Shown here in pieces: positions 408 through 20,064 of a stretch of DNA of 27,011 nucleotides (position 1 is its first letter; each line of letters starts with the position of its first letter). The translations under genes and the position numbers were made by a program. Origin of the DNA: a virus; IMG/VR virus record IMGVR_UViG_3300013947_000112, positions 1-27,011 of that record. One strand, written 5' to 3'. The notes under the pieces were generated by a model. The model saw nothing but the letters and a program-made list of their open reading frames with translations, did no database searches and had not been told where the DNA came from.

Positions 408-2858
408 ATGGCAGAAGAAATAAAGAAAGTGGTCTCGGTAGATGTATCCAAGGCCGTTGAAGACATAAAGTCCTTATCGGATGAACTTGAAGAAATGGAT
501 GATGACATTCTTTCTTCCATCAAGACATTCAAGGACTACAAGACTACAATAGAGCATTTGTCTGTATCCCTGTCTAAAATGGATGAAGACACCGATGAAT
601 ATGAACACACTCTGTCTGATCTCAACAAAGTCCAGAGTGCATATAATGATGCAATTTCAGTTTCAAAGACAAAATCTGATGCTGCCGCCGGGAGTTATAA
701 TGCACTGTCAAAGGAGATGTCCGAACTCAAAAAAGCGTTCAAGGCTACTAATGACGAGACTGAAAGGAGTGCGCTTGCGGAGAAGATAAACGGTATCAAT
801 GACCAGTTGAAGTCTATGGATGCTTCAATAGGAAATTATCAAAGAAATGTCGGCAATTATGCAAGTGCATTCACTGGTGGTCTTGAACAGATAGGTGAGA
901 AATTTGAAGCCCTGAACAATCCTATGGCACTGGTAAAGACAGGTATAGGTGGAATAAACAAGGCATTCAAGGCACTTATCGCTAATCCCATAGGTGCCGT
1001 CATCGCTGCTGTGGTTGTTGCTGTAAAGGCATTGGTTTCTGCTTTCAAGTCAAATGAAGAAGCGTCAAACAAATTGAAGGTTGCATTTTCTAAACTTGAA
1101 CCCATAATCAACGGTTTCAAGACGGTGATGGGTAAAATAGTCAATGTCATAGGTGATGTCATTGTCTGGATTTCAAAACTGGCAGGAAATGTGTTGTCGA
1201 GCTGGTCAAAGATAGGAGGTGTATTGAAGACTGTTCTCACTGTGTTCAATCCTGTGGTGGATGGTATAAAGAAGGGTTTCTCTATTCTTTCTGATGCGGT
1301 GGAGGGGTTTGTCAATCTCTATACTTCTGTTATTGACGGTGTTGCCAAAGGCAGTGTGAAGATTGCCGAATGGCTCAACAAGATTGGAGTTGTCTCTGAT
1401 GCAAAACTGAAACAGATGCAGGACGTGGTGAATGCGGAGAAGACCATGTTTGATGTTTCAACCGAATACACAGAGAGACAGATTGCACTTGAAGAGAGAA
1501 GGAGAAAGGAAGAGGAGGAGACCGCAAGAAAGGAGTCTGAAATTTCAAAACTCAAATTTCAGGCTGTTCAAACCGACAAGTATTCTTCGGAGGAAAGACA
1601 GAAGTTTCTCCAGAAGGCCATCGATCTTGAAAAGGAGATAAATCAGGAGAGACTTGCAATAGCGAAAGAGGAACTTGACATTGCCGAGTGGAAAGCGGCA
1701 CAGGCACCTAACTCAAAGGAAGACAATGAGAATCTTGCAAAGGTACGGGCAAACTATTACAGGGTGGAGAAGGAATTTACAGAAAAGTCAAAGGACATCT
1801 ACAGTCAGTTGGTTTCAGCCCAGAATTCGGTGAAAGACAGTTCTGATTCCATGTCGGATAGTCTCAAAAAGGCAAATGAGATTATAGAACAGTCCTTTGA
1901 TGACATTAACACCTATCTTGAAGAGCAGGACAAGGTATTCTTGGATGAACAAAACAAGAAGGATGAGAAGATAAAGGCAATACAGAACAGGCTTTTTGAA
2001 GAAAGTCTGACTCCTGAACAACTTCAATTGCAGGAACTTGATGCCCAGTATAAGGAAGAACTTGCACTTTATGAGGAGTATGGTTATAGCACACTTGAAC
2101 TCACAAAATCATATGAGCAAAAGAGAGCTGACATCATAAAGAACATAAATGATCAGATTGCATCAGACAAGGAAGAGACAAGACAGACAGAAATCAATAA
2201 TCAAATTGCTGAGATAGAGAAACTTGCAGAAAAAAGAGAAGAATATTCACAGCTGGCAAGTGATATTTCTTCTATTCTGGGTTCAATAGGTGATGGATGG
2301 AATAGTTTGCTTGATCAACAATACAAGACAGGTAAATTGAGTGAAAAGGAATACAAGAGGAGACAGAAGGCATTGCAGGCATTCCAGATTGCATCCATAG
2401 TTGGTCAAAGTGCTGCATCCATATTTGACTTATGGTCCGGTTATGCAAAGGAGACTGCAATCATAAACTTACAGACGGCAGGGGCAACAGGAGCATTAGC
2501 GGCAGGGACAAAGGCTGCCCTTGATGCAAAGTCTCTCATATCCACCATAGCAAAGACAGCCACCATTGCATCTACTGCTGCCACACAGATTGCTGCCATA
2601 AAGAGTTCAAGTTCTTCAAGTTCTGTGTCTTCTGGATCAAGTGCAGGTGCAAGTGCTTCAATAAGTTCATCAGCAGCTTCATATGCTCCATCATATTCAC
2701 AGACGGTTATGGGGAAGACAGATATACAGTCATTACAGAATGCAGTGAGTGAGGGAACAACAGAGGGACAGCAGAATGTGAAGGTATATGTGCTTGAAAG
2801 TGATATAACCACTGCACAGAATGATGTCAAGGTGAGAGTTGAAGAGAGTAATTTCTAA
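408..2858 (+). CDS. Tape-measure-like protein (816 aa)
   Basis: ATG at 408, 2 nt after the previous stop. Long coiled-coil E/K/Q-rich centre, hydrophobic segments (IANPIGAVIAAVVVAVKALVSAF; C-terminal A/T/I-rich tract) and a Ser-rich tail. Sits in the tail-gene block. The order after the Dit/Tal-like genes is atypical. Confidence 0.55.
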   Translation: MAEEIKKVVSVDVSKAVEDIKSLSDELEEMDDDILSSIKTFKDYKTTIEHLSVSLSKMDEDTDEYEHTLSDLNKVQSAYNDAISVSKTKSDAAAGSYNALSKEMSELKKAFKATNDETERSALAEKINGINDQLKSMDASIGNYQRNVGNYASAFTGGLEQIGEKFEALNNPMALVKTGIGGINKAFKALIANPIGAVIAAVVVAVKALVSAFKSNEEASNKLKVAFSKLEPIINGFKTVMGKIVNVIGDVIVWISKLAGNVLSSWSKIGGVLKTVLTVFNPVVDGIKKGFSILSDAVEGFVNLYTSVIDGVAKGSVKIAEWLNKIGVVSDAKLKQMQDVVNAEKTMFDVSTEYTERQIALEERRRKEEEETARKESEISKLKFQAVQTDKYSSEERQKFLQKAIDLEKEINQERLAIAKEELDIAEWKAAQAPNSKEDNENLAKVRANYYRVEKEFTEKSKDIYSQLVSAQNSVKDSSDSMSDSLKKANEIIEQSFDDINTYLEEQDKVFLDEQNKKDEKIKAIQNRLFEESLTPEQLQLQELDAQYKEELALYEEYGYSTLELTKSYEQKRADIIKNINDQIASDKEETRQTEINNQIAEIEKLAEKREEYSQLASDISSILGSIGDGWNSLLDQQYKTGKLSEKEYKRRQKALQAFQIASIVGQSAASIFDLWSGYAKETAIINLQTAGATGALAAGTKAALDAKSLISTIAKTATIASTAATQIAAIKSSSSSSSVSSGSSAGASASISSSAASYAPSYSQTVMGKTDIQSLQNAVSEGTTEGQQNVKVYVLESDITTAQNDVKVRVEESNF

Positions 2859-2867
2859 AAATAGGAG

Positions 2868-2900
2868 GAACAGAATTGATTTTCTGTTCTTTCTTTTTAT
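2868..2900 (+). terminator. Intrinsic terminator after the tape-measure-like gene
   Basis: gaacagaa (2868-2875) pairs with ttctgttc (2882-2889), 6-nt loop, followed by a T-rich run tttctttttatattttttt. Confidence 0.7.
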
Positions 2901-2932
2901 ATTTTTTTGTCGCATAAGAGATGGATACAGAG

Positions 2933-3026
2933 TATAACTAAAACATCCAAAAGTTCAGAGTTTTTTTGTTTCTCTCTATATAGATAATCATAAAAAAACT
3001 CTGAAGTTTTGGATGTTTTAGTTATA
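2933..3026. repeat. 35-bp inverted repeat (one G:G mismatch) with a 24-nt loop
   Basis: tataactaaaacatccaaaagttcagagttttttt (2933-2967) versus aaaaaaactctgaagttttggatgttttagttata (2992-3026). Lies between the tail and head operons. Confidence 0.9.
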
Positions 3027-3084
3027 ACCATAAACACCCTGTTTTTTGATCTTGTATGTCCTATTCTTTATATTTTTTTCATTA

Positions 3085-3117: not shown

Positions 3118-4188
3118 ATGAAAGTATATGACATTACTGTAGATATGCTTGATTGTGAGACAGGGTTGAATGCAGTATCTCTTGTAGAATTCCCTGCGGT
3201 TAAGGTTGATTTTCTCAAATTCTCAAAGGATGAACAGAAAGTCCTTCAATTTACTGATGATGAGAAACATATAATCACTGGTGTTGCACTTCTTGCTGAC
3301 ACACCTATATATAGAGTATCTCCTTATGGTGAAGAATACTATGTCAAATTCTCAAAGGAGACCATAAAGAAGTTGATTGAGAAGTATTTCAAGTTCGGTC
3401 TGGGTAATTCTGTCAATATAGAGCACAATGACTCTGCTTTTGTTGATGGTATAGTTATGGTTGAAAGTTATCTTATTGACAAAGAAAGAAACATTTGTCC
3501 TGTTGAGTTCAATGACATACCTGATGGTTCATGGATCGTAAGTTATAAGGTGAACAATAACCATGTTTGGGAGAAGGTGAAGTCAGGTGAAGTCAAGGGA
3601 TTTTCTGTTCAGGGACTTTTCAACCTTATCGAAGAAAAATTTGAAGATAAACATAAAAAAGTAAAAAATATGAAATCACTAAAAGAAGCATTGAAGTCTA
3701 TTCTCTTGCAGTTTGAGGGTGTCTCTACTGACAAAGGTGAACTTACTTGGAACGGAGACAAACAGCTCGAAGTCGGAGATGAGGTCTATCTTGATGAGAA
3801 CTCTGCACCAGATGGTGAATATGTTGCAGATGATAAGGTCTTTGTAGTCAAGGATGGAAAGGTGGAGGAAATCAAGGACAAGGAGGTTGAAGAAGAGAAA
3901 CCTGTTGAAGAGAAACCTGAAACAGAGGAACTTGAAGAGACTGCACCTGAAACTCCTGAAACTGAAACACCTGAAACTGAACCAGAGAAGGATGACCTTA
4001 TAGAGAAACTTGAAGGCAGGGTTGCAGAACTTGAAAGAGCACTTGCAGAACTTATTGAGAGAGTTTCAAAGATAGAGACTGCACCTGTGGCAGAGCCTGT
4101 TGTTGATGAATTTGAGCAGGTCGGCAAGAAGAATCCCACAGGAAACAAGACAGTTGACAAATATTCAAGGATTTTCGGATCCAAATAA
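3118..4188 (+). CDS. Prohead protease (XkdF-like) fused to an acidic linker and coiled-coil scaffold-like C-terminus
   Basis: The track ORF starts at TTG 3046; the first ATG, 3118 (MKVYDITVD), is preferred. ITGVALLADTPIYRV..YYVKFSKETIKKLIEKYF..VNIEHN..VESYLIDKE resembles the XkdF/S78_2 pattern. C-terminus has a PE/T-rich low-complexity tract, then LEGRVAELERALAELIERVSKIE. Lies directly upstream of the capsid gene. Confidence 0.6.
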   Translation: MKVYDITVDMLDCETGLNAVSLVEFPAVKVDFLKFSKDEQKVLQFTDDEKHIITGVALLADTPIYRVSPYGEEYYVKFSKETIKKLIEKYFKFGLGNSVNIEHNDSAFVDGIVMVESYLIDKERNICPVEFNDIPDGSWIVSYKVNNNHVWEKVKSGEVKGFSVQGLFNLIEEKFEDKHKKVKNMKSLKEALKSILLQFEGVSTDKGELTWNGDKQLEVGDEVYLDENSAPDGEYVADDKVFVVKDGKVEEIKDKEVEEEKPVEEKPETEELEETAPETPETETPETEPEKDDLIEKLEGRVAELERALAELIERVSKIETAPVAEPVVDEFEQVGKKNPTGNKTVDKYSRIFGSK

Positions 4189-5198: not shown

Positions 5199-5726
5199 AT
5201 GGCATGTAATCCACAAACATTTTCAGGTCTTCCTGCAAACTGTGACGCCAACAGGGGTGGTATTCAGGTAGTGTATGTCGCAAATAGGAGCGATGTGACC
5301 GGAGTGTCCCTTGATGACGCCAGCGGACAGATAAAGACCATCACCATGAACACGTCAAAGAAGTTTCAGGCATACAGGTTCAAGAAAGGAGCCGCGTCCT
5401 TCACTTCCACCGCGACCATAGACGCCGCCAATGGGGTCAATTTCATAACCACCGTGCTTTCAGTCAATTTCGCCAAGATGGAAACCCAGAAAAGGATAGA
5501 GATGCAGGCGCTCACTCTTGGTGAGATGGCCGTCATAGTGCTCGACAACAACGGCAAATACTGGTATCTGGGATATAATGAACCAGTCTATGCGTCAAAT
5601 GGTACGGGAGAGACCGGAGCCGCAAGGACAGACGCAAACCAGTATACCATAGAACTTACGGATGAGAGTGATGAGTTCCCGTATGAAATATCTCCTGATG
5701 CACTCACCGACATACTGGAAGGATAG
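5199..5726 (+). CDS. Putative major tail (tube) protein, 175 aa
   Basis: The track start TTG 5154 lies inside the terminator hairpin, so ATG 5199 (MACNPQ) is preferred. GGIQVVYVA..FQAYRFKKGAASFTS..NG..VLSVNF..AVIVLDNNGKYWYLGY..TGETGAARTDANQYTIEL resembles siphovirus tube proteins. Confidence 0.5.
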   Translation: MACNPQTFSGLPANCDANRGGIQVVYVANRSDVTGVSLDDASGQIKTITMNTSKKFQAYRFKKGAASFTSTATIDAANGVNFITTVLSVNFAKMETQKRIEMQALTLGEMAVIVLDNNGKYWYLGYNEPVYASNGTGETGAARTDANQYTIELTDESDEFPYEISPDALTDILEG

Positions 5727-5751
5727 GACTTGATCAGGGTAAGAGAGAATG

Positions 5752-5783
5752 AAGACCGGATTATATGTCCGGTCTTTTTTTTA
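5752..5783 (+). terminator. Intrinsic terminator
   Basis: aagaccgga (5752-5760) / tccggtctt (5768-5776), followed by T8. Confidence 0.8.
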
Positions 5784-5793
5784 TATATTCCTG
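5781..5793 (+). promoter_or_regulatory. Class-2 motif variant TTATATATTCCTG, 15 nt before ATG 5808
   Basis: 11 of 13 identical to TTATATATTACAG, with the same spacing to a start codon, immediately after a terminator. Confidence 0.4.
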
Positions 5794-5807
5794 TAAATTG
5801 AAATAAA

Positions 5808-6134
5808 ATGATATACATTTCATCCGATATTGAGACAAAAAACATACAAATTCCTGTCAATTTATCAAGAAATGACACAGGAATGTATAAGTTTGTCCTA
5901 TTCAACACCACCACAAGACAGGAGTATGAGTATGAAGTGAGAGACAGTGAGTTCAACATTCAATACTATAACATTGAGTTCACACCCGATTTTCCCGAAG
6001 GTGAGTATGAGTATAAATTGAAGTCAGGTGATGAGACTTTGTCATCTGGTCTTTTGAGATATGGTGATTATAGTGTGGATGTGAAGTCGGGTGATGAGAA
6101 AATATCAGGTTATAAATATTCAAGAGACATATAA
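5808..6134 (+). CDS. Hypothetical small structural-module protein (108 aa)
   Basis: ATG-initiated ORF. Its stop at 6132-6134 abuts the next ATG at 6136. No family recognised. Confidence 0.5.
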   Translation: MIYISSDIETKNIQIPVNLSRNDTGMYKFVLFNTTTRQEYEYEVRDSEFNIQYYNIEFTPDFPEGEYEYKLKSGDETLSSGLLRYGDYSVDVKSGDEKISGYKYSRDI

Positions 6135-11464: not shown

Positions 11465-11926
11465 TTATGAAAAAAAGTTTTTGAACTTCATTATCAAATA
11501 TAACAAAATCAATAAATTGACACCCAGACTATACCACACCCACTTGGGAATGTATCTCACAGGTTTCTCAACTTCAACAGGTATTTCCTTATTTATGATC
11601 CTGTCCTTATACACAATCCTGTCCTTATACACAATCCTGCTCTTCACAGGTATGGTGTCCTTCTGTGTCAGTGTGCCTTTCAATGTGTGTGTGAGAGTAT
11701 CGACAAAAGAAATAGATTTTGCATATGTAGAATTCAAGACCAGTGTGTCATAAGCCGGAACCACATCAACCACTCTCTCTTTATTTATATAGGACACCAC
11801 CACACTGTCCCTCAACACCACACTGTCCCTCACATTCACTGTCTCCTTATTCTCCACAGGGACATACTTCACAGTTCCACACGAGACGGAGAACAACATC
11901 AAAATCAATATAATCAGTTTCTTCAT
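11465..11926 (-). CDS. Lipoprotein with a C-terminal TM helix (u-spanin-like topology, or an exclusion/moron lipoprotein)
   Basis: MKKLIILILMLFSVSC has a signal peptide with a lipobox-like Cys16. C-terminal WVWYSLGVNLLILLYLIM is followed by KFKNFFS. Internal repeats VRDSVV x2 and RIVYKD x2. It is the only convincing minus-strand gene. Confidence 0.6.
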   Translation of the reverse strand: MKKLIILILMLFSVSCGTVKYVPVENKETVNVRDSVVLRDSVVVSYINKERVVDVVPAYDTLVLNSTYAKSISFVDTLTHTLKGTLTQKDTIPVKSRIVYKDRIVYKDRIINKEIPVEVEKPVRYIPKWVWYSLGVNLLILLYLIMKFKNFFS

Positions 11927-12173
11927 TTTCTGTGCAGTGTTTTCATTTTTATCCCTATGCAGTCAAGCAGAAAGTCAAGTTTGTCATTGTCCTTCTTAAT
12001 AAAGTAAGATGGTCTCAGTCTCATCTCCCTTATGGACAACTCCTTCTGCCATTCAGTGTATTGTCTGTTTATTTCTTCAACCATATATTGATGTCCATAG
12101 TGTATTTATGTGAAAATATAAAAATCCCTTTTGTATCTCACGACAGAAAAGGGAAAGAAATATGAAAAATCTT

Positions 12174-12215
12174 TGTTATCTTTATAAATGTATGGGATCA
12201 AAAAAAAAAATGAAA
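12174..12215 (+). promoter_or_regulatory. Class-1 promoter-like module, copy a (TGTTATCTTTATAAATGTATGGGATC-A11-TGAAA)
   Basis: The 40 nt at 12176-12215 are identical to 12424-12463. The core TTATCTTTATAAAT recurs at 14412. Confidence 0.45.
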
Positions 12216-12394
12216 TTTGAACTCTCATAAATATAGTATGGCACAGTTATTGCAGTGTCATATATGAAGAATAATGATTGATTTGATGTCTCACTCCACA
12301 ATATGACAGATGATCAATGAGAAATATACAAGTTCAGTCTTTTCGAAACGGAAGTGGAGTGCCGGAGTAGAAAGATTGAACTTTTTTGTTTTGA
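12216..12394 (+). ncRNA. Candidate small non-coding transcript between promoter-like copy a and a + strand terminator
   Basis: The longest ATG ORFs here are 6-9 codons. It is bounded upstream by the duplicated module and downstream by a hairpin plus T-run at 12331-12394. Confidence 0.35.
12331..12394 (+). terminator. Intrinsic terminator-like hairpin
   Basis: agttcagtcttt (12331-12342) pairs with aaagattgaact (12371-12382). One G.U works only on the + strand. Followed by ttttttgtttt. The 28-nt loop is large for a terminator. Confidence 0.5.
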
Positions 12395-12423
12395 ATATAA
12401 TAAAAATTTAGTAATATGTATAA

Positions 12424-12463
12424 TTATCTTTATAAATGTATGGGATCAAAAAAAAAAATGAAA
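12424..12463 (+). promoter_or_regulatory. Class-1 promoter-like module, copy b
   Basis: Identical 40-mer to 12176-12215. About 28 nt of weaker similarity follows (ctcAcataaatata). Confidence 0.45.
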
Positions 12464-12503
12464 AATGATCTCACATAAATATATAGTAATAAGTTTATTT
12501 TAT

Positions 12504-12848
12504 ATGGAAATTACAGAAAAGACTATAAGTGATCTCATTCACAAGTGGGTGGAGATAAAGAAGAAGGACAGGGAATTCAATGAATTCTTTATGAAGTATA
12601 TGACAAGAAATGGAAAGGTAATGATATACACAGAAGAATTGGATTATGTAATTAAAATATCCTCACAAAAACTTGTATATAAAGTGAATCAAAATGATCT
12701 GAAATCAAAATATCCTGAAATATACAAGGAACTGCAAAATAACAATCTGAAATCAAAATATCCTGAAATATACAATGATTTGAAGGAACTTTATCTGAAA
12801 TCTTCTTCTGTAAGTCTAAAAAAATGTAAAAAAAAACAACAACCATAA
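12504..12848 (+). CDS. Hypothetical Lys-rich protein with an internal 16-aa tandem repeat
   Basis: The ORF is open from ATG 12465; ATG 12504 (MEITEKT) is the alternative if transcription starts after the upstream module. A perfect 31-nt direct repeat at 12697-12727 and 12745-12775 encodes LKSKYPEIY twice. Confidence 0.4.
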   Translation: MEITEKTISDLIHKWVEIKKKDREFNEFFMKYMTRNGKVMIYTEELDYVIKISSQKLVYKVNQNDLKSKYPEIYKELQNNNLKSKYPEIYNDLKELYLKSSSVSLKKCKKKQQP

Positions 12849-13045
12849 ATAAAGTGATGGACATTTTATGATTTTGATGTTTGTTATATTTATATGTAGA
12901 ATATGAAAAGACTGTCAAGAAAGTTTGGCACACTTTTTGTATATAAGTAAGTAAAAAACTGCTGGCAAGGTCATAAACCTTACTCAAACAGGGAAATCAC
13001 GATGAAAAAGTTTAGAACCTGTTTTTGCCGTAAATGAAACCATAG

Positions 13046-13308
13046 GGACATTATCGGGGCCAGAAATCCACAGTTTATAAAGTTCTATGAAATACACACT
13101 GTCTCACCGGCTGAGTTTATGAGCTAAGGGGGAGTGAGATCATAGCACCTGATAAGGCTATGCGGGAATAATCAAGACCATTGTGTGTATTGAAACGAGA
13201 ATGAGTTCTGTGGAAGGAGAAAGAGAAAGGATAACAAGTCCTTTTGAAAGTCCGGGTGAGACTGGATTTAGAAATTTTCTTCAAAAACTCTATGGGATTT
13301 CTGTGTCC
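13046..13308. ncRNA. Candidate structured RNA, ~260 nt, with nested long-range helices (strand unresolved)
   Basis: Nested pairings: ggaca 13046-50 / tgtcc 13304-08; cagaaatcc 13061-69 / ggatttctg 13295-303; gtctcaccgg 13101-10 / ccgGgtgagac 13252-62 (1-nt bulge); catagc 13141-46 / gctatg 13157-62. An extra 9-bp pairing 13091-99 / 13183-91 crosses these. All three stop codons occur in the frame I translated. Confidence 0.4.
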
Positions 13309-13399
13309 AATTCGTAGATAAAGATATTATATAAAGAAATAAAAAAGAATAATATAAATAAGTTCTTTATAAATAAATTTATTGATAAAAAGAATGTTA

Positions 13400-13497
13400 G
13401 GACATAAAGTCCAAGAGGTTTCTGCTTGTGTTTGAGATTTCACTACGTTCAATCTCACCGCTTAGCTGCTTCGCTGCTTCGCTAACACAACAGAAAC
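13400..13497. other. Structured module A
   Basis: ggac-ATAAA-gtcc (13400-12), then aagag. A 14-bp stem with a 1-nt bulge (13418-32 / 13484-97) encloses hairpin tgagatt/aatctca (13433-39 / 13451-57) and a tandem gctgcttc x2 (13465-80). Confidence 0.5.
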
Positions 13498-13701
13498 ATA
13501 TAAACGGAAAAAGAGAAATATTAGATAATCGCGCATGCGAGGCGAGGCCAGAAGTGTAAGGTATAAGAGACTGTCTGTTCTTTGAATGGATAGTCTTTCA
13601 CTGTATCATATAGTGTTATACTAAATAAAAAAGGTGTTATACAGAATTCTCTTATATAGACTGATAAGAATGATGTTATACTTATAGAGAATTCTATGTA
13701 A

Positions 13702-13779
13702 TGACCATAAAGGTCAAAGGACAATCCTTATTCCGCTCCTACGGAGTTTGTTCGCTTCGCTCACCTACATAAGGATTGT
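13702..13779. other. Structured module B (same architecture as A, different stem sequences)
   Basis: tgacc-ATAAA-ggtca (13702-16), then aagg. An 11-bp stem acaatccttat/ataaggattgt (13721-31 / 13769-79) encloses hairpin ctcc-tac-ggag (13736-46) and ttcgcttcgct (13751-61). Confidence 0.5.
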
Positions 13780-13918
13780 ATCTTATTGAACTTGTTGTAT
13801 AAGAATTTGATGTAAAAGTCTTTCATAGTCTGTTATAGAAAAGTTTATTTTATAAAAAGAAAGATTTTTATATATAATAGATGCTCATAAGTAAAAAGAC
13901 TACTATGGAAGTCTTTAT

Positions 13919-13958
13919 ACAGGATAAGATCCCCCAAGCCCTTATCCTGTTTTTTTTT
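13919..13958 (+). terminator. Intrinsic terminator inside the non-coding region
   Basis: acaggataag (13919-28) / cttatcctgt (13941-50), 12-nt loop, T9 tail. No ORF lies upstream, so it would end a non-coding + strand transcript. Confidence 0.7.
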
Positions 13959-14254
13959 ATCAACTCACTTCTGTTATTCAAAGAAAGACTGTCTCTCACT
14001 TCTGTTATAAAAGACAAACAACAATCTATAATTCCTGTTATTTCACTCATATAAGGGTATTACAGACACTTTCTCTTATTCAACCTATAATTATACCACC
14101 CCACCCTTATAAGCTCAAATAAACCCACTATGGTTATGAAATACAGGGTGTCCCTCACTTCTCTGTTATAGAGAATTATATTTTGTTCCTGATCTTTATT
14201 TCATAAGCAAAAAGTCTGTTATTCAACTCATTTCTGTTATTCAAAGAAAGACTG

Positions 14255-14358
14255 TTATTTGATGGATGGGGTGGTCTAAAATCAACTTATAGACCTTGAC
14301 TGGTATAATCCTACATTTCACTCCTATAAGTGTCTAAAAACCCACCATAATCACTAAA
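14255..14358 (+). repeat. 104-bp direct repeat, copy 1
   Basis: 101 of 104 identical to 15104-15207 by manual alignment. A degenerate partial copy lies at about 14041-14153. Confidence 0.9.
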
Positions 14359-14400
14359 TACAGGGTGTCTCATACAGGGTGTCTCATACAGGGATGTCTC
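14358..14400 (+). repeat. Tandem ATACAGGG(A)TGTCTC x3
   Basis: Units at 14358-71, 14372-85 and 14386-400. A single related copy atacagggtgtccc is at 14141-54. Each block is followed by tcacttctctgttat. Confidence 0.9.
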
Positions 14401-14409
14401 TCACTTCTC

Positions 14410-14425
14410 TGTTATCTTTATAAAT
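14410..14425 (+). promoter_or_regulatory. Class-1 motif copy c (TGTTATCTTTATAAAT), 22 nt before ATG 14447
   Basis: The 16-mer is identical to 12174-12189. Confidence 0.45.
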
Positions 14426-14446
14426 ACATAAAATAAAGAACTTGCT

Positions 14447-15082
14447 ATGAAAATAACCAGTATAGACTTTTCACTTGTCAGTCCAGCCATAACCAACTAT
14501 AATTCAACCACCCACACCTATGACTTCGTCTCATTCACTGCTGTCCCTACCTATCACTCATATGAGACATCAAAGAAATTCCAGACACACAGATCAATCT
14601 CACCTTATATAACCATAGTCCCTTATGTCCGTTCCATAGACAAATCCACCTACCAGACCACAGAGGAGACAAAAGTCCTTGATGCAATGTCCCTGTCTAA
14701 TCTCATAATCCACAAGATCAATGAATTTCACCCCGACATAGTAGCTATTGAAGGGTATAGTTTCGCATCACATTCCGCAAGCTATATTGATCTTGTCTCC
14801 TATCAGTCCATTCTCCGCTCACAGATAAAGAAATATGGTTATCCTTTGTATGTCATCTCACCCAGTCAAGGCAAAATGGCACTGTCCGGTAAAGGCAATG
14901 CAGACAAGATGACACAAATTCATTCATTTATTGAGAACAGGCCAGACATACCTTATATAGAAGAGAATTCATTATGGTGGTTTCTTCAAAGTTATATGAT
15001 CAATGAGAATAAACTCAAACCTGTTGATGATATTGTTGACTCTGTGGGAGTTCTTTTGTCAAGTCTCAAACACATTCAATAA
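14447..15082 (+). CDS. RuvC-like Holliday-junction resolvase (211 aa)
   Basis: MKITSIDFS (Asp7), VAIEGYSF (Glu102), ISPSQGKMALSGKGNADK (matches the RuvC p..vK....G.G.A.K pattern) and VDDIVDSVGV (D..D) line up with the four RuvC catalytic acidic positions. Confidence 0.7.
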   Translation: MKITSIDFSLVSPAITNYNSTTHTYDFVSFTAVPTYHSYETSKKFQTHRSISPYITIVPYVRSIDKSTYQTTEETKVLDAMSLSNLIIHKINEFHPDIVAIEGYSFASHSASYIDLVSYQSILRSQIKKYGYPLYVISPSQGKMALSGKGNADKMTQIHSFIENRPDIPYIEENSLWWFLQSYMINENKLKPVDDIVDSVGVLLSSLKHIQ

Positions 15083-15103
15083 AACCCTGTTACTGGAAGT
15101 CCC

Positions 15104-15207
15104 TTATTTGATGGATGGGGTGGTCTAAAATCAACTTATAGACCCTTACTGGTATAATCCTACCTTTCACTCCTATAAGTGTCTAAAAACCCACCATAAT
15201 CACTAAA
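15104..15207 (+). repeat. 104-bp direct repeat, copy 2
   Basis: See 14255-14358. The copies are 849 bp apart and bracket the resolvase gene. Confidence 0.9.
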
Positions 15208-16106: not shown

Positions 16107-16607
16107 ATGCAACTCTCAACTCATTTCACCCTTGAAGAACTCATTTCATCATCAACTGCAAGACAACATGGGATAAAGAACACACCATCACCTGAGCAAA
16201 TAGAAAATCTCAAACTCCTGTGCAACAACATTCTGGAACCCATTAGGGAGAAACTCAACACACCTTTATATATAAGTTCAGGATTTAGGTGTGAGAAATT
16301 GAATTCCCTTATCGGTGGGAGCAAATATAGTCAACATCTTTATGCTCAGGCTGCTGATATTCAAATTTTCAATAAATCCCTGACAAATAAAGATCTGTTT
16401 GACTGCATTGTCTCTATGGTCAAGTCGGGTGAGATCACAATTGGTCAGTGCATATGGGAGGGTGGAACTGATGAATGTCCAAATTGGTGTCATGTTTCAC
16501 TGCCATATAAGAAGACAAACCAGATTTTGAGAATGCATCAGGTCTATGACAAGCATCTGGGTAAATACAGGAACACATATGAGGATTTGACTTCACTCTA
16601 TCTGTGA
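16107..16607 (+). CDS. Endolysin, peptidase M15 (M15_3/YcbK-like) family
   Basis: STHFTLEELISS, LEPIREKLNTPLYISSGFRCEKLN..GGSKYSQHLYAQAADI and CHVS match the zinc peptidase M15 pattern (SGyR...N...GG...S.H..G.AaD ... H). Confidence 0.8.
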   Translation: MQLSTHFTLEELISSSTARQHGIKNTPSPEQIENLKLLCNNILEPIREKLNTPLYISSGFRCEKLNSLIGGSKYSQHLYAQAADIQIFNKSLTNKDLFDCIVSMVKSGEITIGQCIWEGGTDECPNWCHVSLPYKKTNQILRMHQVYDKHLGKYRNTYEDLTSLYL

Positions 16608-18965: not shown

Positions 18966-19526
18966 ATGAAAAAACTTGAAATATGGAAATCAATTCCGGG
19001 CTTCCCTAACTATGAGGCATCCACTGAGGGGAGAATAAGACAGGGTGGCACAATACTCTACACCTGCATAAACAATTCCGGATATGAAGTGGTCTGTCTG
19101 TGGAAGAACAATCATAGACATTGTTTCCCTGTCCATAGACTTGTTGCAAAGACATTCATACCAAATCCTTATTCTTATACTGATGTTGATCATATAAATA
19201 ATGACAAGTCAAACAATTCAATAGACAATCTTCAATGGATGAACCACAGGGACAATTGCAGAAAATACTATGATGAGAAGAAATACAGGGACAGGATTTT
19301 ATTGTCAGTTGCACAGGGACATTGGGTGAACATCTATTCAGGCAATTCAACTTCATATCAGGGCACATATACCACACCTATGAACATAACCATAGACTAC
19401 TATTCATTCACAGGCAATCTCATCACAGAACTGTCCAGACTGTCTTCGCTGTTCCCTGATTACATATTTGGTATTCATACTGATGCAGGAAATCTTTATA
19501 TACAAGGAAACAGAAAAGTGAGATGA
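18966..19526 (+). CDS. HNH homing-type endonuclease with an N-terminal NUMOD4-like motif
   Basis: ATG 18966 is preferred over TTG 18894, which lies in the terminator. EIWKSIPGFPNYEASTEGRIR fits NUMOD4. VHRLVAKTFIPNP..VDHINNDKSNNSIDNLQWMNHRDN fits the HNH_3 pattern. Confidence 0.75.
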   Translation: MKKLEIWKSIPGFPNYEASTEGRIRQGGTILYTCINNSGYEVVCLWKNNHRHCFPVHRLVAKTFIPNPYSYTDVDHINNDKSNNSIDNLQWMNHRDNCRKYYDEKKYRDRILLSVAQGHWVNIYSGNSTSYQGTYTTPMNITIDYYSFTGNLITELSRLSSLFPDYIFGIHTDAGNLYIQGNRKVR

Positions 19527-19831
19527 CACATTTTGAGATCGTAGAAGAACTGGCAAGAAACAGGACGGTGGAGGAGATTGTGGACAACATTTCAAAGAAG
19601 ACATTTCCATACACTGATGAACTTGCACAGGACATTTATCTTTCACTGCTTGAAAAATCACCTGAACTTATTGAGGGACTGTATGAGAAGAATGAACTCA
19701 ACTACTTCATAGTGAGAATGGTGAGGAACAATCTTTTTTCAAGAAACTCACCTTACTACCAGACATACATAAGGTGGGATGAGAGAAAGTCCGAACTCAC
19801 CGACAATATAAAAGACACCATAACCGAATGA
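19523..19831 (+). CDS. Sigma-70/ECF-like region-2 domain as a stand-alone ORF (102 aa)
   Basis: ELAQDIYLSLLEK (2.1/2.2-like) and ELNYFIVRMVRNNLFS (2.3/2.4-like). ATGA overlaps at both ends. Confidence 0.55.
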   Translation: MTHFEIVEELARNRTVEEIVDNISKKTFPYTDELAQDIYLSLLEKSPELIEGLYEKNELNYFIVRMVRNNLFSRNSPYYQTYIRWDERKSELTDNIKDTITE

Positions 19832-20064
19832 AAGAAATTGACATAGATGAACTTGAATTTGAGTTTCTGGCTCCTGACAAAATGAATGACAACGAGAAAC
19901 TATATTTATTGAAAGAGAGAATATCAAGACTTTCAACAGCGGACAGGTATATACTTCTGTTATATCTTGATCTGGGTAGTTATGCAAAGGTGGCAGATTT
20001 CCTGAACTGTTCTGCAACCACCATATATTTGAAGATAAAGAAAATAAGGGAGGAAGTGATATGA
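19828..20064 (+). CDS. Sigma-70 region-4 (HTH) domain as a stand-alone ORF (78 aa)
   Basis: RISRLSTADRYILLLYLDLGSYAKVADFLNCSATTIYLKIKKIREEV fits the region-4 pattern L....r.v..L....g.sy.eiA..l..s..tv......a...l. Confidence 0.55.
   Translation: MKEIDIDELEFEFLAPDKMNDNEKLYLLKERISRLSTADRYILLLYLDLGSYAKVADFLNCSATTIYLKIKKIREEVI

Follow-up and report, generated by a model that had tools for sequence, protein, structure and literature searches.

What fills a 1.6-kb gap with few open reading frames (ORFs) in a tailed-phage genome, at a place where relatives of the phage carry replication genes? The DNA studied here, called the window, is the whole of IMG/VR virus record IMGVR_UViG_3300013947_000112 (27,011 nucleotides; coordinates refer to it unless another contig is named), essentially the complete genome (~27 kb) of an uncultured tailed phage. 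The gap (12848-14447) has a small ORF on one side and the gene of a RuvC-like resolvase on the other, and a sequence-only reading had proposed that 13046-13308 within it is a structured RNA. Folding and comparison with a diverged homolog indicate that 13067-13282 is very probably the core of a conserved, independently folding, structured + strand RNA that belongs to no known family. The proposal of a structured RNA is upheld and its limits are revised: the conserved block runs over ~12950-13305, and the part supported by covariation is the core just named.

The segment is indeed richer in GC than its surroundings, as had been noted (0.415 in 13000-13299 vs. 0.24-0.30 in the flanks), and its fold beats shuffled controls: 13046-13308 on the + strand reaches -73.7 kcal/mol, against -61.8±4.2 for the shuffles (z -2.85; 0 of 200 as good). 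The - strand of the same segment gives z -2.2, with 6 of 200 shuffles as good. In a fold scan of the whole window (263-nt windows on both strands, register-matched to the candidate), the candidate ranks 8th among 204 windows. The excess stability is genuine yet moderate; thermodynamics by itself is suggestive, not compelling.

The stronger evidence comes from a second sequence. Exact-protein look-ups returned sibling contigs L004 and L007, which have the candidate at 100% identity; the close relatives L001-L003 lack it and have a 379-aa ORF in place of 12286-13562. The ORF upstream of the candidate led to a diverged copy: a 63%-identical homolog of its product (P0091) is encoded on Logan contig L037, which carries the whole non-coding cassette at 74-75% identity over 1.2-1.6 kb, with the candidate at 3146-3406 of L037. 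All covariation data given here compare the window with L037 only. RNAalifold, run on 12955-13320, predicted 90 pairs, among which 13 changed on both sides and none was broken; when the partners were slid by 1-3 columns, only 0-3 double-changed pairs were found, vs. 13. Within the core (64 pairs), the 25 substitutions in paired positions fall on 14 pairs, none of which is lost (11 kept by double changes, 3 as wobbles), whereas the same substitutions placed at random paired positions break 14.6 pairs on average, and zero broken pairs occurred in 0 of 20000 simulations. Since paired and unpaired columns of the core have equal substitution rates (0.195 and 0.20), the stems are not simply invariant but change in pairs. 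The search for compensatory changes in homologs, suggested with the first description of the segment, thus gave a strongly positive result. Folded separately for minimum free energy (MFE), the window and L037 also adopt the same helices; the L037 core folds with z -1.95 (10 of 200 shuffles as good).

The core has two domains, both on the + strand. The 5′ domain (13067-13214) is multi-branched and comprises helices P1 to P6. P1 (13067-73/13208-14), P2 (13082-86/13198-202), and P6 (13164-65/13178-79) are invariant between the two sequences; P3 (13091-99/13183-91) shows three double changes and one wobble, P4 (13101-08/13132-40) three double changes, P4a (13109-14/13120-25) one double change, and P5 (13141-48/13156-62) three double changes and one wobble. 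The P4/P4a arm contains an invariant unpaired internal loop, AAGGGGGA (13126-13133), with five consecutive G (G5) at 13128-32. The 3′ domain (13216-13282) is a three-way junction formed by the invariant P7 (13216-22/13276-82), by P8 (13226-31/13239-44), whose stem is invariant and whose loop varies, and by P9 (13248-55/13262-69), with one double change, one wobble, and an invariant GUGAGA loop.

This architecture departs from the one first proposed, in which four helices were nested and a fifth pairing crossed one of them as a pseudoknot or alternative fold. The five pairings are all present as Watson-Crick pairs in the window, and two of them are retained. The 6-bp hairpin, whose true coordinates are 13141-46/13157-62, is part of P5; the crossing 9-bp pairing (13091-99/13183-91) is a genuine helix, P3 with its three double changes, but the pseudoknot is not needed. 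The 10-bp helix 2 that it would cross (13101-10/13252-62, with one bulge) has 3 mismatches in L037, and its 5′ arm covaries with the nearby 13132-40 arm instead (three double changes); with helix 2 dropped, the fold is fully nested and requires no pseudoknot. The 5-bp outermost helix (13046-50/13304-08) loses 3 of its 5 pairs in L037. The 9-bp outer helix (13061-69/13295-303) is only weakened there, by one uncompensated A×C and one G·U, and is unsupported; it competes with the invariant P1, which both sequences use in longer-context folds. It is true that the MFE fold of the 263-nt segment uses this outer helix, and that GUCUCAC at 13101-07 can pair with 13134-40 or with 13256-62, so that an alternative fold specific to the window is physically possible. 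With the breaks in L037, and with the P3, P4, and P5 arms covarying with local partners, we nevertheless regard the earlier architecture as very improbable.

The core has G·U pairs in both sequences (window, 6; L037, 7), and its one-sided changes all involve G·U; the 6-7 G·U pairs indicate an RNA of the + strand. With RNA parameters the fold has z -2.8; with DNA parameters the values are -0.9 (+ strand) and -1.2 (- strand), no better than shuffles. For the core, these DNA values and the 6-7 G·T positions speak against a DNA signal of the single-strand origin (sso) or single-strand initiation (ssi) type. Every + frame of the region has stops, and coding on the - strand was dismissed as well: the 55-codon ORF there, with a TTG start, was never called as a gene.

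Conservation between the window and L037 is 80-97% across ~12950-13305, and because it reaches back to ~12950, the element starts ~100 nt upstream of 13046. The conserved 5′ extension (12962-13063, + strand) includes a 60-nt stretch with only one difference in L037. Its predicted pairings are a helix (CUGGC 12962-66/GCCAG 13059-63), a small hairpin with a CAUAA loop (~12968-12981), and the hairpin AAACAGG/CCUGUUU (12986-92/13018-24); all are invariant, so covariation is neutral on them. The extension also contains an 11-codon micro-ORF (MKKFRTCFCRK; 13002-13037, + strand), of which 35 nt are invariant, with no synonymous drift. Its stop is lost in L037, where the frame continues for 57 codons into the RNA, and no gene was called at it in L004, L007, or L037; since the stop codon is not conserved, the micro-ORF is probably non-coding. 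A motif scan found a candidate Bacteroidota-type -7 box, AAAGTTTG (12920-12927, + strand), one base off consensus; the homologous position in L037 reads TAACTTTG, a perfect TAnnTTTG, and the block TTTGGCACACTTTTTGTA is conserved. The box has no -33 TTTG at an appropriate spacing. Taken from the candidate box, the 5′ end of the RNA may possibly lie near 12934. A repeated box (TGTTATcTTTATAaAT, an A-run, and ATGAAA) occurs at 12169-12204, 12418-12452, 12877-12894, and 14405-14440, and the TGTTATcTTTATAaAT box precedes each early unit of the + strand, the RNA cassette among them; it may act as a promoter or translation-start module, and cassettes may be exchanged by recombination at it.

Comparison with Rfam 15 (4227 models) gave no match at the gathering score in the whole window, and at E<=10 no match overlapping the candidate, in 12700-14500 or in 12990-13360; the L037 cassette gave chance-level matches only. 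We take this release to include tRNA, tmRNA, RNase P, 6S, group I and II introns, riboswitches, and self-cleaving ribozymes, as well as HEARO/ωRNA, GOLLD, ROOL, OLE, and raiA. ARAGORN found no tRNA or tmRNA genes in the window, which removes those two classes, and together with Rfam this bears out the initial impression that the segment is none of tRNA, tmRNA, RNase P, 6S, or hammerhead. Set apart by the Rfam comparison, the RNA is a new family, known from two lineages. Membership of GOLLD or ROOL was rejected, neither the window nor the L037 cassette matching the family consensus in Rfam. We found no partner genes of the guide-RNA type (TnpB/IscB, reverse transcriptase, IS110 recombinase) in the window, and with no cognate protein gene adjacent, a TnpB/IscB ωRNA, a retron msr-msd, and an IS110 bridge RNA were ruled out. 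A guide RNA for the RuvC-like protein was likewise discarded: the protein is a resolvase, and in relatives its gene directly follows the primase gene with no RNA between. Nor is the element a riboswitch or 5′ leader, the next + strand gene starting ~1.1 kb downstream (14447), beyond a terminator at 13920-58, or a group I or II intron, as the upstream ORF has its own stop ~200 nt earlier, no exon ORF follows, and no Rfam intron model matches.

Further copies were sought widely. The region, in its window and L037 versions, has no similar sequence by blastn among GenBank phages or PLSDB plasmids. Exact-pattern scans of IMG/VR with blocks conserved or invariant between the two versions returned no homolog, a scan with the P9 stretch (which differs in L037) returned two chance matches only, in high-GC contigs, and a gapped-pattern scan of GTDB genomes also returned two chance matches only. 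Locus searches of JGI metagenomes and IMG/VR with a profile of the RuvC-like protein found only ~40%-identical jumbo-phage relatives without the RNA, and a covariance model (R1), run on 275 kb of loci, found the three known copies and no others. Exact-protein look-ups with a 53-aa neighbour gene of the window and with RuvC homologs P0001, P0002, P0009, P0015, P0016, and P0022 led to other contents at this site or to contigs that break just upstream of RuvC. The small Lys-rich protein ORF114 (12504-12848, + strand), encoded directly upstream of the RNA cassette, accompanies the RNA in the window and L037 and is absent from L007. A profile search with ORF114 and its homolog found no third member, only two clusters among 5.8 billion proteins, and the AlphaFold model of ORF114 is of low confidence (pLDDT, its predicted local accuracy score, 66). 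Within ORF114, a 48-nt tandem duplication (12682-12777) doubles the peptide LKSKYPEIY; it is absent from the L037 homolog.

The RNA belongs to a ~1-kb non-coding cassette bounded by an early promoter region and an intrinsic terminator. Immediately 3′ of the RNA lies a spacer (13310-13399) with a GC of 0.122, the most AT-rich 90 nt of the 27-kb window; the homologous spacer of L037 (GC 0.144) is the second lowest in its contig and is poorly conserved in sequence, with indels. The spacer is a candidate DNA-unwinding element or linker. It is followed by element A (13400-13497, + strand), with a GGAC-AUAAA-GUCC mini-hairpin, a 14-bp stem with a 7-bp hairpin inside it, and a GCTTCGCT tract, and by element B (13703-13779, + strand), with a GACC-AUAAA-GGUC mini-hairpin, an 11-bp stem, an inner hairpin, and again a GCTTCGCT tract. 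The two elements share this architecture and are nearly invariant, all their stems being Watson-Crick; compared with L007 and L037, the window has 16 nt inserted in element A, and element B is also found in the relatives that carry the 379-aa protein, which are without the RNA. In L037, GCTTCGCT has become GTTTCACT in A and B alike, a joint change that points to a shared partner or to gene conversion between them.

The cassette is closed by an intrinsic-terminator-like hairpin (13920-13958, + strand; CAGGAUAAG/CUUAUCCUG, then U9), whose loop has a C5 run (13931-35) that is unique on the + strand of the window; both changes of this hairpin in L037 turn Watson-Crick pairs into G·U, which is tolerated only in + strand RNA. 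The invariant G5 loop (13128-32) is complementary to this C5 loop over only 6 nt in the window, and over 13-15 nt in L037 (G5-loop region and C5 hairpin loop at 3219-3240 and 3964-3981); a kissing interaction was rejected, in view of the 6 nt in the window and of the C5 terminator in relatives without the RNA. A direct-repeat region (13960-14446; families D3, D8, D10, and D14), iteron-like or promoter, separates the terminator from the RuvC-like gene and is shared with the relatives carrying the 379-aa protein. The same interval is also filled by short repeats, including four copies of ATACAGGGTGTCyC, with copy number varying between strains, and a 104-nt direct repeat (94% identical; 14248-14351 and 15097-15200) flanks the RuvC-like gene.

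The cassette lies in a slot between the divergent early promoter region and the RuvC-like gene (14447-15082, + strand; 211 aa, phage RuvC-like resolvase, PHROG 159, E 2e-17). This slot (11926-14446) has at least four alternative contents among relatives, and many assemblies break there; judged by these contents, it is a module-exchange site. In L011-L019 it codes for a VapE-like helicase and a BT4734/PriCT-2 primase (in L039 and L041-L044 a truncated ~315-aa ORF, placed by position and not by a family scan, stands where the primase would be); in L038 and L040 it codes for a DEAD/ResIII helicase-like protein of 926-934 aa, and in L001-L003 for a 379-aa helix-turn-helix protein, while the window, L004, L007, and L037 have the non-coding RNA cassette. 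The flanks of L037 resemble those of the helicase/primase lineages (the 41 nt upstream of RuvC are identical to L011/L012), so at least two lineages have exchanged replication genes for the cassette. Compared with PHROGs and Pfam, none of the window's ORFs falls in a replication family, and tblastn found no remnant of the helicase, primase, or 379-aa gene in the cassette, by which a decayed copy of any of these as the origin of the cassette was ruled out. L007, at 894x coverage according to its contig name, has the cassette but lacks ORF114; a phage whose slot holds nothing besides the non-coding cassette is evidently successful.

What might such an RNA do? Our favoured reading, a tentative one, is that it is an origin-associated pre-primer or origin-opening transcript, similar to RNA II of ColE1; the link to replication is inferred from its position in the slot and the absence of recognisable replication genes. 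ColE1 is an initiator-free replicon in which a ~550-nt structured non-coding RNA, made by host RNA polymerase, opens the origin and serves as primer (PMC5043065). By analogy, the cassette would be a protein-free replication-origin module and the RNA its origin transcript, which would start near 12934 and fold co-transcriptionally. It would help to form or position an RNA-DNA hybrid at the adjacent AT-rich tract (13310-13399), and the hybrid would open the duplex and/or prime leading-strand synthesis by host enzymes, as with RNA II; the all-Watson-Crick elements A and B could then be single-strand signals on the displaced strand. The genome GC minimum directly after the RNA counts in favour of a role in replication. 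It seems rather doubtful to us that a lineage of tailed phages gave up its helicase-primase genes, took a protein-free "RNA origin" cassette of ~1 kb in their place, and replicates with host enzymes only, and we are just as hesitant about the division of the cassette into a structured RNA that acts as pre-primer, an AT-rich tract for unwinding, and hairpins that act as single-strand signals.

Like RNA II, this RNA is non-coding, several hundred nt long, and multi-hairpin; the proposed likenesses are a host RNA polymerase transcript directed towards the origin, and a replicon without its own initiator, helicase, or primase. On the latter, small ORFs without assigned function remain beside the negative PHROGs and Pfam comparison; on the former, the structure and strand are seen, the promoter is at the level of motifs, and the adjacent tract is the AT maximum of the genome. 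ColE1 also has single-strand hairpin signals downstream, to which elements A and B could correspond. There are differences: the RNA has no sequence or Rfam similarity to RNA II, the host is probably of the Bacteroidota, the element is a tailed phage with a terminase and not a plasmid, and R-loop formation, RNase H processing, and priming by Pol I, which belong to ColE1, are analogy only here. Tailed phages offer precedents of another kind: T4 forms R-loops at oriF and oriG, and the primary origin of T7 consists of promoters followed by an AT-rich region. The order of promoter and AT-rich unwinding tract is the same here, as is the proposal of a primer or opener transcript in a tailed phage; however, T4 and T7 each have genes for a complete replication machinery, of which nothing recognisable is encoded here, and we know of no need for a conserved fold of ~200-350 nt in their origin transcripts.

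Several points weigh against a role at the origin, or limit the support for it. The argument from the slot is one of guilt by position, and variable phage slots also collect accessory or anti-defence genes. AT-rich spacers, too, are found in ordinary promoter or terminator surroundings. Element B, the terminator, and the repeats are all retained in the 379-aa-protein relatives, which lack the RNA, so an origin, if it lies here, need not require it. No DnaA-box cluster was found (a host-type origin with such a cluster was set aside on this ground), GC skew is uninformative as an origin marker, and an initiator might be hidden among the small ORFs of the window. No antisense regulator like RNA I is evident, no targeted search having been made; in a sigma-70-type consensus scan of 12000-15000, none of the 5 promoter-like sites on the minus strand falls within 12950-13305, Bacteroidota promoters lying outside that consensus. 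Finally, there are only two independent sequences of the RNA (window and L037) plus identical copies, and covariation says nothing on P1, P2, P7, P8, and the whole 5′ extension, which are invariant.

Among the rival explanations, the RNA could be a trans-acting accessory molecule unrelated to replication, sitting in a recombination hot spot that coincides with the replication slot; we consider this possible, with more doubt than belief, and the same holds for the forms it might take, such as a decoy or sponge that captures a protein of the host (one of defence or one that binds RNA), a molecule that regulates host RNA polymerase, or a regulator put to use in competition with co-infecting relatives. 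It suits the high polymorphism of the slot within samples, with its four or more contents and many assembly breaks, and the promoter-like boxes flanking the cassette, which could drive module exchange; the conserved unpaired AAGGGGGA and GUGAGA loops resemble recognition surfaces, and the sequence is conserved at least as well as the neighbouring ORF. Yet it leaves unexplained how a 27-kb phage without helicase, primase, or recognisable initiator replicates, and why replication genes were replaced rather than added to, and no target was identified. The opposite view, that there is no function and only chance complementarity in a GC-richer non-coding remnant, could appeal to the modest thermodynamic signal in both the window and L037, but is scarcely credible with all 14 changed pairs preserved where ~15 broken ones are expected, with conservation equal to or above that of neighbouring coding sequence, and with no similarity to the replaced genes.

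Two further rivals concern the nature of the cassette as a whole. GOLLD, ROOL, and OLE are large bacterial RNAs that form homo-oligomers, and GOLLD and ROOL are described as phage- or prophage-borne, large, multi-domain, and covariation-supported RNAs of function not established (PMC12286853), features that the present RNA shares. The whole of ~12934-13958 might likewise be a single "ornate" RNA of ~1 kb that forms a higher-order RNA particle, with conserved structured blocks over ~1 kb running from one promoter region to one terminator in a phage, as for many GOLLD and ROOL loci. We think this unlikely: the Rfam models of GOLLD and ROOL give nothing at E<=10, the RNA has no tRNA genes near it and is known from two lineages only, the AT-rich linkers between the blocks have indels and little conservation, which suggests separate elements, and the stems of A and B are all Watson-Crick, unlike the core. 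Still less likely, in our estimate, is a folded single-stranded DNA initiation signal of the sso/ssi type, which would recruit host RNA polymerase or primase to the displaced + strand and so replace the phage primase. The argument from the slot applies to it equally, and sso/ssi elements also show strand-specific conserved hairpins with compensatory changes; signals of the ssoA and G4 types are non-coding, highly folded stretches of 100-300 nt that stand in for an element-encoded primase through host enzymes. Such signals act as DNA, whereas the present core is rich in G·U, with one-sided changes that create or remove wobbles, is stable only with RNA parameters, and lies inside a promoter-to-terminator unit of the same strand; no match to the ssoA loop consensus (TAGCGT) was seen by eye, no search for it having been made. 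For elements A and B, with their purely Watson-Crick stems, the DNA reading may still hold.

Few RNAs of 200-350 nt have support from covariation and no assigned family, and each of them offers a way into new RNA biology. The location of this one is unusual, since it replaces replication genes in at least two lineages of uncultured pig-gut phages whose genomes are still complete and abundant. If it is an origin transcript, a replication module made of proteins can give way in tailed phages to one that is based on RNA and depends on the host, and the cassette, with its one RNA, single AT-rich tract, and two hairpins, would offer a compact system for tests; a ColE1-like strategy in tailed phages, with an RNA fold of a new family, would not have been described before. 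Should it act in trans as an accessory RNA, host takeover or anti-defence by means of RNA would gain a new candidate. The covariance model R1 can be used to search raw nucleotide archives.

The phage itself encodes tape-measure, major capsid, and portal proteins, DUF285/BspA-like fibres, an M15 endolysin, an HNH endonuclease, and a large terminase with at most 26% identity to any GenBank phage terminase; sibling contigs of 25-31 kb are circular permutations of the window, and the lineage is present in ENA and Logan assemblies only. BACON, DUF285, and BT4734-like domains, together with A-rich translation starts, suggest that the host is probably one of the Bacteroidota, with Prevotella or Bacteroides the probable genus. 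Since at least two contigs of related phages (L019 and L040; RuvC relatives of the L015 class) are labelled as pig-gut or gut metagenome, a pig-gut origin is inferred for the window, whose siblings bear no such label. The strongest structure of the genome by far lies elsewhere, in 2858-3046, an intergenic segment after the tape-measure gene, where a terminator-like hairpin (~2863-2895) is followed by a near-perfect ~37-bp palindrome (~2932-3026); it has z -10.7 alone, and -9.3 (+) and -8.4 (-) in the genome scan. A second above-background fold (5682-5944; z -4.5 on the - strand and -3.1 on the + strand) surrounds the intergenic gap 5726-5808. Of two adjacent small ORFs (19523-19831 and 19828-20064), the second weakly matches a family of phage RNA polymerase sigma factors (PHROG 1740, E 2.8e-4) and could encode a sigma factor of the phage. 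A GIY-YIG homing-endonuclease gene, absent from the window, is found in some relatives (L003 6146-6823, L010 2791-3468, L038 6313-6843, and L041 3293-3970), where it follows the endolysin gene (16107-16607 in the window).

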